A DNA stretch of 64,000 nucleotides, taken from the NCBI GenBank assembly GCA_964016885.1, contig OZ024757.1, forward strand, positions 26,412,001-26,476,000, given 5' to 3'. The DNA comes from Eledone cirrhosa (lineage: Eukaryota). This document shows positions 57,442 through 63,599 of this stretch, in pieces. Made by a program: the position numbers and the translations under genes. The notes beneath the pieces were generated by a model that was not told the origin of the DNA, did no database searches, and worked only from the letters and a program-made list of their open reading frames with translations. Every line of letters starts with the position of its first letter. The first letter of the stretch is position 1.

Positions 57442-57569
57442 TAAATAGATATGTTTCTTTATTAGCCACAGGGGCACAGAAGAAGGGGTCAAATACAAAG
57501 GGGGAAGTTTACATACAATAAAAACGTGTAAAATATTATCACAAATGCAATTTAAAAAATTAGTCGATT
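57440..57569 (-). mobile_element. 5'-truncated 3' end of a related Tx1 subfamily
   Basis: Reverse complement is near-identical to 21600-21725 (aatcgactaa...cccctgtggctaataaagaaacatatcta) and similar to the 3'UTR of the full-length element. Confidence 0.85.
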
Positions 57570-57806
57570 AATATATAGATAGATAGATAGATTTCTTTAT
57601 TTACCATAAAGGCATAAAAAGAAGGGACAAATACAAAGGGGGAGTTTACATATAATCGAGTAAAAAGGGTGTAACATGAAAATAATCGAAAATAACCTCA
57701 AAAGGGAGGGGACGTGATGGGGGTTGCACACACCCCCGAAAAAGTGTGCAATCCTTTGCCCGGGGAGCACATGGAGAAGGTGTTCCCCTCTCCTTTACTT
57801 CTTTAC

Positions 57807-61277: not shown

Positions 61278-63158
61278 CTACCTTTCCGCTTCCCGGGGTT
61301 CGGGTTGCACGACTTCCATGGGGTCGGGGGTGTTGGGTGAAGGGGTGTCTTGTGGTGGTGTGGGGTCGTCGGTGTGTGGTGGGGTTGGGGTGTTTGGAGT
61401 TGTGTTGGGGAGGGGAAGGGGAGGGGGAAAGCTTTTTAGTAGGACGCGGTTTATGGGTTTGACAGAGGGTGGTCCTACGTCCTCCTTAAAATCCTTTTTT
61501 AGTTTTTGGTAGAGGTTCATTGGGATTTTTATTAGTTTTAAATGTGGGTGGTTTTCTGATGAAACAAAGTTTACACCTTCGGTTTGTACCGAAGGATTAT
61601 TGTATATGAGTTCATTTAATTTATTATTGTTTCTGTTGATGTAAGTATAGTGTAATGTCTTTTTTTCCGATGGTGTGAGTGTTTCGAAGAGGGGAGGGGC
61701 AGGTTTGGTTTTGTTTGTTGCTGGAGGGGTGTTTTCTGTTTTGTTAGATTGTGTTGCGATTTGGGTGGGGGTTGTTTGTCCTTGTGTGTTTTGCACATGT
61801 TTTCTTTTTTTCCTTTTAATCTGTCTGAAGGACTCCGTTTCTTCCTCCGAATTCGTTGGGTTATCTTCAGTGTTGGAGGGAAGAGGTATGTTTGCTGGTA
61901 ATGTTTCCGTGTTGGTTTTCTTTGTGGGGGAGATGGATGTCACTATGTTAGACTGTGTTGTGTGTTGTGTCTGCGGTGGTTGTGTTGTTTTATTGAGTGA
62001 GAGGTTGGGTGGGCCTGTATTTTGTTTTGGGGTAATGTGTTGTGACTGTTTGTGTTGTGGTGGTGTTGTGGTGTTACTGAGGGACGGGTTGGGTGGGACT
62101 GAGTTTTGTTGTTTGTTTATCTGTTGTGGTGGTGGTGGTGGAGCTGGTGTTGGTAGCAGGGTTTTCTTTTTGTTGAGTTGGGGACAAGCGGCCTTCAGGT
62201 GCCCTCTGCCTGCACAGATATGGCAGGACGGCCTTCTCCCCTCCACGCTAATGTTTATATACCCGTGGTCCTCTAATAGGATTCTGTCGGGTATTTGGGC
62301 GATGCGTTCAGGCTTCATTTGTACTACCAGCTCTATACCTGTTCCACTGAACGCATTGCCTGTGGTTTTCCCAATGGAAATCACGTTGTCATTCACTGGA
62401 TCGATGAAGCCAGCTATGAGCCAGCAGTAGTCCACATCTGGCATCATTGCATCCAGCCATATGCGTTGAGTTTTTTTCCCCATATAAGATGGATAAAAGG
62501 TGAAATTTTTCGAACGAATCGGTGACAAAGCACATTTTTTTGCCGCCGATTCGTTCTTCATGATAATTGCTAGGCTTCCATACAGTCTGTCTTTTCTTAT
62601 GAAAGTTGTTTCATTCAGTACTTCTGCGAGTACTGTTTTGATATCTGCTTGAGAAGGCTGTTCAGGTTTTTTTGTACTGTTGTTGATGGTCCGAAACTTG
62701 ACCGTTCGGCTTTCAATGTCTTTCGTGAATTCTTGAGGCATTTTTACCAATAAAATACCATTCTCACCTTCACTTATGTATTGTTTTGCGTCCGTGATCC
62801 TTCGTACCACATCTGAAATGTTTTCCGCTATATAAGTCAAAGATTTCTTTGTTTTCTGTGCAAAAGAAATCTTGTCGTCTGCTTTGTTTTCTGATATTAT
62901 GTTATTTTCAACTGTTATTTTTTTGTTTGTTGTGTCTTTGTTTGTGTTATTAGTATTGTCATGCAATTTTTCAAATTTTTTTTTTTCGTTGTTTTCGTCA
63001 TTTAATTTTTTTTCCTCCGCAGATTCGTCCGTTTTTATTTTCATTTTTCCTTCCTTCTCTATGACGTTAGTTGGGAAGGAAGGGAGGACTAAAGCGTGCG
63101 AGCTTACAACTCTTACCGCTGTCCCCCCACCACTATTTTCGTTCGCTGCGTTTAACAT
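61278..63158 (-). CDS. ORF1: gag-like nucleic-acid chaperone with one CCHC zinc knuckle (626 aa)
   Basis: Uninterrupted ORF ending 33 bp before ORF2. CHICAGRGHLKAAC fits C-X2-C-X4-H-X4-C, followed by a P/T/Q-rich low-complexity region. The start codon is uncertain. Confidence 0.9.
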   Translation of the reverse strand: MLNAANENSGGGTAVRVVSSHALVLPSFPTNVIEKEGKMKIKTDESAEEKKLNDENNEKKKFEKLHDNTNNTNKDTTNKKITVENNIISENKADDKISFAQKTKKSLTYIAENISDVVRRITDAKQYISEGENGILLVKMPQEFTKDIESRTVKFRTINNSTKKPEQPSQADIKTVLAEVLNETTFIRKDRLYGSLAIIMKNESAAKKCALSPIRSKNFTFYPSYMGKKTQRIWLDAMMPDVDYCWLIAGFIDPVNDNVISIGKTTGNAFSGTGIELVVQMKPERIAQIPDRILLEDHGYINISVEGRRPSCHICAGRGHLKAACPQLNKKKTLLPTPAPPPPPQQINKQQNSVPPNPSLSNTTTPPQHKQSQHITPKQNTGPPNLSLNKTTQPPQTQHTTQSNIVTSISPTKKTNTETLPANIPLPSNTEDNPTNSEEETESFRQIKRKKRKHVQNTQGQTTPTQIATQSNKTENTPPATNKTKPAPPLFETLTPSEKKTLHYTYINRNNNKLNELIYNNPSVQTEGVNFVSSENHPHLKLIKIPMNLYQKLKKDFKEDVGPPSVKPINRVLLKSFPPPLPLPNTTPNTPTPPHTDDPTPPQDTPSPNTPDPMEVVQPEPREAER

Positions 63159-63599
63159 TTCTGTTAGACGATTGAAATTTTTTACACAAAATTTTTTAAA
63201 ACAGGTTTTTCACCTCTAGGAGGGGTAAAGATGAGCTGACCCACCGCCTGACAGTTCAGACGGAGGGTCAAGCTACACAATTGTATCAAAATTAAGTTTG
63301 AACTCACAAAATTTCCTCAATAAATTTGAACAAAACTTCTGTGCGAAGTGAATGACATCCACACTGTAGAACAGACGACAGCTAGATTAATATATAGATA
63401 GATAGATAGATAGATAGATATACACAATAAGGTAACACCAACCACATTTACAGTGTATGCTGGGTGCTTTTTGTCATGACACCTACACGATGACTTTACA
63501 GCGTGAGCTGGGAGCTTTTTTGTAGTGATACCAACTCCACTACATTACAGTGTGGGCTGGGGACTGGAACAAAAGTGTAAAAGCATTGGAGAAGGGTGC

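Follow-up and report, generated by a model that had tools for sequence, protein, structure and literature searches.

Does a retrotransposon that sits against a (TATC)n microsatellite choose this repeat as its target, or does it carry the repeat along as its own tail? The question is raised by a stretch of 64,000 nucleotides from Eledone cirrhosa (contig OZ024757.1, positions 26,412,001 to 26,476,000 of the forward strand), which as a whole is called the window here and is numbered from its first letter. A first-pass annotation of this window, made from the letters alone, had marked an intact Tx1 element and proposed that it is potentially active and specific for (TATC)n, while avoiding the far more abundant (TA)n. 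The analysis described here leads to a similar reading, to which I assign a probability of about 0.72: the element is an intact long interspersed nuclear element (LINE) of the L1/Tx1 type, with more than 1,500 copies, which inserts in one orientation at the TATCT of (TATC)n/(GATA)n, most likely by nicking with its own apurinic/apyrimidinic endonuclease (APE).

Insertion sites in the window and in the genome

The full-length retrotransposon, of the kind without long terminal repeats (non-LTR), occupies 57590-63388 on the minus strand (about 5.8 kb, each end being placed to within about 3 nt), and its sense strand starts with (A)ATCTAGCTGTCG and ends with AAATAAAGAAATC. The sense 3' terminus, ...GGTAAATAAAGAAATC, runs directly into TATCTATC..., and no poly(A) is present. 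Three members of the family, and no more, were recovered from the window by BLAST. The matches of the two short ones span 21650-21713 and 57456-57519, and their wider bounds come from reading the sequence: a 5'-truncated copy of about 247 bp from a sister subfamily lies on the plus strand at 21470-21716, flanked by (TATC)12 at 21422-21469 and (ATCT)6 at 21717-21742, and an older 5'-truncated fragment of about 119 bp, of the same sister subfamily, lies on the minus strand at 57451-57569 and ends GGCTAATAAAGAAACA|TATCT. As had been noticed in the first-pass annotation, all three abut TATC in the same orientation relative to the element; they end ...AATAAAGAAA(TC/CA)TATCT without poly(A), the TATC strand being the sense strand. 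The full-length copy landed in the repeat 5' of the older fragment, giving a head-to-tail stack. TATC-phase runs of at least 8 bp make up 0.10-0.18% of the window per strand, compared with 13.7% for (TA)n of at least 8 bp, and a mere 0.25-0.5% of 40-bp windows hold such a TATC run as background; the window has four TATC/GATA runs of at least 12 bp, and all four flank family copies. The association of the window copies with TATC repeats is therefore far above chance.

For the genome, I searched the 3.0-Gb assembly with the last 207 nt of the element, which are free of repeats, and obtained 971 candidates. The best-scoring 40 of these, including the window copy, are 100% identical over the query and serve as the set of young copies, with 7 kb fetched around each of the other 39. 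The 5' start of the window copy is common to 22 other copies, and its 3' junction to 38 of the 40. A TATC-phase run of at least 8 bp is found in the 3' flank of 38 young copies and in the last 40 bp of the 5' flank of 33 (37, if runs of at least 6 bp are counted), and as repeat in the 5' flank cannot come from a 3' tail, the target itself held the repeat. Target-site duplications (TSDs) of at least 10 bp that start in the repeat accompany 36 of the 40 copies, and in 21 copies the TSD passes from the repeat into unique, copy-specific sequence; since this sequence differs, each of them is an insertion of its own, into a site where the repeat was already present. Kojima (2015) regards a family as target-specific if one sequence type is found in more than 20% of its flanks (PMC4494074). 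The corresponding values here are the 33/40 and 38/40 for the 5' and 3' flanks just given, and 1334/1571 for the genome as a whole.

The site before insertion can be seen for one young copy. L031 lies in a large tandem repeat, of which three paralogous units on another contig are free of the element, with flanks that are 98.7-99.7% identical. These empty sites read ...CTCTCTCTATCT[ ATCTATCTCTCTCTCTGG ]AGATTTT, the outer bracket enclosing the TSD of the filled copy. Judged from them, the pre-insertion site of L031 held three ATCT units within a CT run; the insertion used the ATCT units and not the CT run, and no unit was gained at the 3' junction. The first-pass annotation had named 5' flanks and empty sites as the places where target and self-encoded tail could be told apart, and both thus speak for a target. 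The tandem repeat that supplied the empty sites fills several contigs (C1124, C1421 and C28 at 124.7-126.3 Mb, L118-L121), with matches every 11-15 kb or so on C1421 at 94-98% identity. A search for an allelic contig of copy L032 matched only a dispersed repeat of about 170 bp.

The 22-nt 3' end of the element occurs 1571 times in the genome, and its reversed control 0 times. TCTATCT comes next in 798 occurrences and TATATCT in 536, so that 1334 of 1571 (85%) continue with T[C/A]TATCT, in line with the (TATC)n specificity first proposed. One might suppose that copies without TCTATCT, roughly 49% of the total, are off-target, and this was rejected: TCTATCT follows 45 of the first 100 ends on contig C1, and of the 40 fetched from the other 55, 35 begin with TAT and belong to a sister lineage ending GAAATA|TATCT. 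Within the next 28 nt, these 40 show a TATC run of at least 12 bp in 12 cases, of 8-11 bp in 6 and of 6-7 bp in 9; the remainder consists of (TA)n in 3, other sequence in 8 and unclear copies in 2. Fourteen of the least repeat-like copies were fetched in full and are 92-99.8% identical to the window copy. Eight of them are at a TATC motif that is seen in the 5' flank or the TSD, namely L162 (TCTATCT), L166 (4.5 units), L168 (TCTATC, with a 6-bp TSD), L163, L164, L165, L167 and L169. The motifs of L162 and L168, together with the lone (T)CTATCT used by L052, L055 and L061, are the smallest targets found.

Viewed from the side of the target, (TATC)7 has about 148,000 overlapping positions in the genome (the paired control is the same repeat in another phase and thus no true control). 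A sample of the first 21 separate (TATC)7+ arrays on contig C1 contains nine that abut a family copy, three of these on both sides; every one of these copies has the sense orientation and comes from an older subfamily, with 72-85% nucleotide identity. One of the remaining arrays has an inverted, 3'-truncated relative.

Form of the junction and choice of the target

When the 3' ends of all subfamilies are written as GAAA + NN + a 5-mer (n=93), the 5-mer is TATCT in 82, TATAT in 7 and something else in 4; this set was drawn from DNA picked for the repeat or the family and shows the form of the junction, not its frequency. The two linker bases are TC, TA, CA, TT, CT, GA or GT, depending on the subfamily. 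The TC and TA lineages differ by 70 fixed differences over 5870 columns (13 TC versus 6 full-length TA copies), which are evident only over the full length, as the last 500 nt hold no diagnostic difference at a level of at least 9 of 11 copies. The linker is thus heritable and encoded by the element, with the target beginning at TATCT. Counted from there, the TSD measures 15-20 bp with a median of 19, and 23 bp in the window copy if its AAT is counted as target. Where the TSD has an anchor of at least 5 nt, its 3' copy is never richer in repeat than its 5' copy (16/16); this count omits L056, L059, L062, L066 and L069, whose anchors are 2-4 nt, and among these L062 has by eye 22 versus 18 repeat bases and L069 is equal. 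There is no sign, in the junctions or at the empty site, of repeat units copied from an RNA tail. A fixed junction to which no units are added weakly favours specificity of the nuclease, combined with a fixed start of reverse transcription.

On this account the APE-type endonuclease would read the motif and nick the GATA strand, at a site that the junctions suggest to be 5'-AGATA^G-3'. Reverse transcription would be primed from this nick and would start at a fixed point right after the two linker bases, for which reason no poly(A) would be copied, and a cut of the second strand 15-20 bp downstream would yield the TSD.

Several observations weigh against this account, or limit it. The young copies are the top scorers of the 971 candidates and not a random sample; two of the 40, L034 and L058, have neither a TSD nor repeat in the 5' flank, L033 has a TSD of only 7 bp, and the 5' end of L064 lies beyond the fetched DNA. 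Six of the 14 atypical copies are off-target or unresolved, with TATAT in L170 and L171, (TA)n in L173 and L174, a rearrangement in L172 and no TSD in L175, and about 15% of all copies (237/1571) do not have T[C/A]TATCT. Twelve of the 21 (TATC)7+ arrays have no family copy. An empty allele of the window locus, that is, the joint across 57566-63411, was not seen among the listed joints of Logan contigs from four runs placed on 57000-64000, which are too short to speak for or against it. A nick that is up to a few bases deeper in TATCT would fit as well, because the last bases of the element (TC) mimic the repeat. Finally, as AATAAA is so close to the end of the element, transcripts probably enter the flanking repeat, which keeps pairing between RNA and target in play. 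The target preference is, in short, strong and not absolute. The off-targets look like one-mismatch versions of TATCT, and the avoidance of (TA)n that was claimed at first holds in so far as few copies are found there; (TA)n is under-used rather than avoided.

The explanation that competes best is one in which the RNA guides the insertion: a transcript tail that includes the target of the parent copy (UAUCU...) would pair with the nicked GATA strand and set both site and register, and the endonuclease would be loosely specific. I consider this unlikely, although it has several points in its favour. Cleavage takes place 10-30 nt downstream of AATAAA, and with AATAAA 5-10 nt from the end of the element it would fall in the repeat. 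None of the 40 young copies contains a copied poly(A), which requires an internal start of reverse transcription. Moreover, relative to the nick the whole of the motif is on the primer side, with unconserved bases upstream, and the off-targets TATAT and (TA)n resemble TATCT with one mismatch. However, the register is fixed at GAAA + NN + TATCT. Pairing at variable registers would be expected to leave extra units, and none is found at the 3' junction of the empty site or of L041, L052, L055 and L061, where the nick is in the first unit of the array. The linker bases drift between subfamilies without loss of the target, so that the linker, at least, does not pair, and target choice in Tx1 and R1 elements has been attributed mainly to the endonuclease (PMC4494074). 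The two models are not mutually exclusive. If the RNA end were read, the choice of target would be carried in it, inherited epigenetically from the last insertion site and open to re-programming by a single off-target jump, which I likewise regard as doubtful; the change from TA to TC beside the repeat, making the end mimic the target perfectly, would then have accompanied the latest burst.

It is very improbable that the repeat is only a self-encoded 3' tail of an untargeted element, comparable to the simple-repeat tails that many LINEs have, with TATC arrays being born from such tails. Every copy ends ...GAAATC TATCT, the TATC arrays of at least 12 bp in the window all touch a family copy, and each insertion duplicates part of an array in its TSD, as one would expect under this explanation. 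Against it, the repeat is present in the 5' flanks of 33-37 of the 40 young copies, and behind it comes unique sequence of which a duplicate stands at the 3' side, the three empty paralogous sites already have the repeat, the 3' copy of the repeat is never longer than the 5' copy, and the 12 copy-free arrays among 21 show that arrays exist without the element. More improbable still is random insertion followed by survival or assembly bias in microsatellites (passive accumulation, selection, or repeats collapsed or duplicated in the assembly): the genome is extremely rich in simple repeats and passive accumulation has been invoked for Waldo-A/B near CA repeats in Drosophila (PMC3812793), but with an identity of 99.9-100% there has been no time for copies to be sorted, the junction is base-exact and strand-specific in 38/40, the abundant (TA)n has few copies (3/40 of the atypical ends), and flanks and TSD anchors are specific to each copy, which means independent insertions and not duplications.

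Structure, affinities and age of the element

The direct repeat that bounds the window copy, GATTAATATATAGATAGATAGATAGAT, is 27 bp long and exact (57566-57592 and 63385-63411) and cannot be extended on either side. It had been taken in the first-pass annotation as a TSD of about 27 bp; the repeat stands as described, and the TSD is probably shorter. The 39 other copies indicate that the outermost 3-4 bases on either side of the repeat are probably part of the element (AAT before CTAGCTG at its 5' end and ...GAAATC at its 3' end), so that the true TSD would measure about 20 bp. In the sense direction it reads TATCTATCTATCTATATATT, with its 3'-side copy at 57570-57589 and its 5'-side copy at 63389-63408, both on the minus strand. 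Sense-upstream of the TSD, a leftover (GATA)n array at 63409-63420 (minus) indicates that the target had more units than were duplicated.

Between the common 5' end and the ATG of the first open reading frame (ORF1) lies a 5' untranslated region (UTR) at 63159-63388, and the 3' UTR occupies 57590-57806, both on the minus strand; the 3' UTR carries AATAAA 5-10 nt from its end without poly(A). Its last 60 nt or so are conserved across subfamilies, and the only conserved structure that RNAalifold reports for 8 subfamily ends is a 3-bp GCC-N5-GGC hairpin of -3.2 kcal/mol. Both reading frames are open on the minus strand, as first noted: ORF1 (61278-63158) encodes 626 aa and ORF2 (57807-61244) 1145 aa. 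The spacer between them (61245-61280, minus) is in the same frame and contains a single TAG and 11 sense codons ahead of the ORF2 ATG. Given the shared frame, translation of ORF1 and ORF2 coupled by stop-codon read-through or re-initiation is conceivable.

ORF2 has an APE-type endonuclease domain at aa 23-227 (60564-61178; Pfam Exo_endo_phos, E 5.8e-8), a reverse transcriptase (RT) domain at aa 512-755 (58980-59711; RVT_1, E 5.8e-27) and a C-terminal zinc-binding zf-RVT domain at aa 976-1032 (58149-58319; PF13966, E 7.9e-6), all on the minus strand; the zf-RVT score of 26.9 bits is slightly below the cut-off of 27.5. All three domains are also present in the relatives P0003-P0014. The top PDB match is human L1 ORF2p, with E 1.5e-50 over aa 8-855, and R2 proteins match at the RT only (E 2.4e-20). 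The N, E, Y, GDxN, D and DH motifs of the endonuclease, which I take to hold the catalytic residues of L1, align with L1 ORF2p, and YADD is found where L1 has FADD. The nearest named protein relative is a hypothetical protein of Argonauta hians with 63% identity, which points to a host that is probably an octopod; the relatives in the protein Atlas are generic APE/RT clusters only, and a search of metagenome contigs with P0012 gave no distant relatives with flanks. With an N-terminal APE, a central RT and a C-terminal Cys-rich domain in ORF2, the element is, by its domain order, a non-LTR retrotransposon of the L1 group (L1 and Tx1 clades). Within this group, its architecture and the type of its ORF1 suggest that it may belong to the Tx1 clade.

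The ORF1 product was harder to place. It consists of a core at aa 90-340 and a C-terminal half with a low-complexity tail rich in P, T and Q; no Pfam family exceeds the threshold, and a word-based search found no relatives. A CCHC zinc knuckle at aa 311-327 (62178-62228, minus) is a weak single-sequence Pfam match (E 0.32). An exhaustive search with aa 90-340 gave 120 relatives at E<=1e-3, 22 of them at E<=1e-10. Of the 33 sequences aligned (the query core and 32 matches), 9 match Pfam zf-CCHC, and the family profile finds only nucleocapsid knuckles of the retroviral type in the PDB (E 2.9e-5). A single-sequence fold of the core was unusable, with a predicted local distance difference test (pLDDT) score of 31.7, whereas AlphaFold2 with the alignment reached a pLDDT of 91.3 and a predicted template modelling (pTM) score of 0.76. 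The top Foldseek matches of this model are proteins with tandem RNA recognition motifs (RRMs), namely Prp24, Sxl, hnRNP A1 UP1, HuR and PABP (E 4.6e-5 to 6e-4). Their global TM scores are low (0.22-0.30), as is expected if the two domains are oriented differently. The ORF1 core is thus predicted to have RRM-like domains in tandem and, after them, a CCHC knuckle. Variants of 'Type I' ORF1p with RRM and zf-CCHC are in keeping with the Tx1 clade, and this type is not exclusive to it, as plant L1s have it too (PMC5203782). The present ORF1 is of the same kind, its RRM part being given by the predicted structure.

The family is young and has been active recently. Identity to the window copy is 98.8-100% in the 39 fetched copies and reaches 100.0% over the whole aligned length in seven of them. 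Among the 40 young copies, 23 begin at position 1 and another 3 at position 11, 13 are 5'-truncated and 1 is interrupted; full length is thus reached by 26, of which 20 have both ORFs at exactly 626 and 1145 aa. These numbers make the potential activity suggested by the first-pass annotation plausible, and the family is probably still active. Contigs of runs that are labelled as two other organisms carry pieces of the element, with a few differences per several hundred bases; no RNA data set is among the runs listed with a match.

Some irregular copies were observed along the way. Independent 5'-truncated copies of different subfamilies start within about 20 nt of one point, (CC)TGTAGGT..., which lies some 215-250 nt from the 3' end, near the ORF2 stop (the plus-strand copy at 21470, L052 at position 5575, and the 3' flanks of L067 and L152). 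Reverse transcription may have a preferred stop there, or the point could mark a short derivative made of the 3' UTR only. The full-length copies L048, L050, L055 and L175 are without the first 8-10 nt or so and are joined straight to the repeat (…ATCTATCTA|tctgttctacag), which agrees with second-strand joining by microhomology of the target with the element's TCT-rich 5' end. In the 3' flank of L044, a 7-nt remnant AAGAAAT is followed by CTATCT again, and that of L059 has an end of about 22 nt from an older subfamily; such tiny remnants in arrays suggest reverse transcription that was abortive or terminated very early. A sequence (C)TGACGTGTGGAACATCGCCGGTAAG...TTGTTAATTT recurs directly after TATC arrays; it is present in the 3' flanks of L069, L106, L124 and, in a looser form, of L142 and L145. 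It resembles the 5' UTR of the young family, so that full-length members of sister subfamilies are probably stacked in these arrays, with this sequence as their 5' end.

Comparison with other LINEs, and neighbouring repeats

Landing in simple repeats is a strategy known from several other LINEs, among them Dong of the R4 clade and Waldo and Mino of the R1 clade. The repeats in question are (ACAY)n for Waldo, (AC)n for Mino, (TC)n for Kibi, (TTC)n for Koshi, (TAA)n for Dong and (TG)n for Togen (PMC3812793, PMC4494074, PMC4640811). Togen is related to NeSL, and R4 and NeSL are among the clades with a restriction-like endonuclease (PMC4640811). Dong, Waldo, Mino and Togen share the strategy with the TATCT family; they belong to different clades and use different repeat units and in some cases a different nuclease. 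Nearer to it in kind are Kibi and Koshi of teleosts and the crocodilian Tx1 families (Tx1-1_Crp, Tx1-5_Crp, Tx1-2_AMi and others), the latter with (TTCC)n/(TTTC)n as target (PMC4494074), which likewise are LINEs of the L1/Tx1 group with an APE-type endonuclease that insert in microsatellites (PMC4494074, PMC3812793). Their targets are purine/pyrimidine-asymmetric and their hosts vertebrates, whereas the present family uses (TATC)n/(GATA)n, or a single TATCT, in a mollusc-like host. The family acts like Kibi and Koshi and is a member of neither, since its target is TATCT/(TATC)n instead of (TC)n or (TTC)n. Further target-specific Tx1 elements are Tx1L of Xenopus laevis, Keno, which uses U2 snRNA genes, and Mutsu, which uses 5S rDNA, with specificity attributed to the endonuclease (Christensen et al. 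2000 and Takahashi & Fujiwara 2002, as cited in PMC4494074); they use one fixed site in a transposon or in multicopy RNA genes, in contrast to the many equivalent sites of a tandem repeat.

Among proteins of solved structure, the closest relative of ORF2 is that of human LINE-1, and the two elements share the logic of target-primed reverse transcription, in which bases on the primer side match the 3' end of the RNA, as well as a TSD of about 15-20 bp. Human L1 has a loose TTTT/AA nick consensus, a poly(A) end and an ORF1p made of a coiled coil, an RRM and a C-terminal domain. Unlike it, the TATCT family has no poly(A), a target motif of 5-7 nt and an ORF1 with predicted tandem RRMs and CCHC; an A-run follows the 3' end in 0 of the 40 young copies and 0 of the 3 window copies, which sets it apart from the 'relaxed' L1s with a poly(A) tail.

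In Octopus vulgaris, L1-Tx1 comprises 13 families with 421 recently active insertions that cover 2.29 Mb, at about 5.4 kb each (PMC13282606, Table 1). These figures fit a family that is young and mostly full-length, and the likeness is one of description only. The main text of that paper contains neither 'GATA' nor 'TATC' and no discussion of insertion sites. Full-text searches of the literature gave no LINE targeting GATA/TATC, though Repbase, Dfam or the supplements of PMC13282606 may hold the TATCT family. To the known microsatellite-targeting LINEs of the Tx1 type, the family adds a mixed tetranucleotide target, (TATC)n/(GATA)n, and a host that is mollusc-like. It also offers a clean natural system, with more than 1,500 copies, dozens of them near-identical and mostly intact, a minimal target of 5-7 nt and a base-exact junction. 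Between sister lineages, moreover, the RNA end differs by a single base. With these features it is directly testable how an APE-type endonuclease, or the RNA end, recognises sequence. With about 40% of the sampled long TATC arrays carrying a copy, GATA/TATC tetranucleotide markers in this animal may often be interrupted or duplicated by insertions.

Other repeats were encountered in the same surroundings. Two loci on C1, L100 and L102 (near 5.85 and 11.27 Mb), both among the sampled arrays without a family copy, have the same unrelated repeat, tgatagagtgagacacgcttc..., right after a TATC array; a second element may thus use this microsatellite or have it as its end. The microsatellite load of the window is extreme, with 366 tandem-repeat rows in 64 kb. 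At 57000-57233, the summed contig depth is about 1.9 million in run X2, compared with 10^4-10^5 over the LINE, and this segment is probably a very abundant short repeat, a short interspersed nuclear element. A near-perfect palindrome of about 135 bp at 57200-57337 (aaaaaggaaaagaatgacttcacttgtag ... ctacaagtgaagtcattcttttccttttt) resembles a miniature inverted-repeat transposable element, and a similar repeat of the hairpin type follows copy L041.

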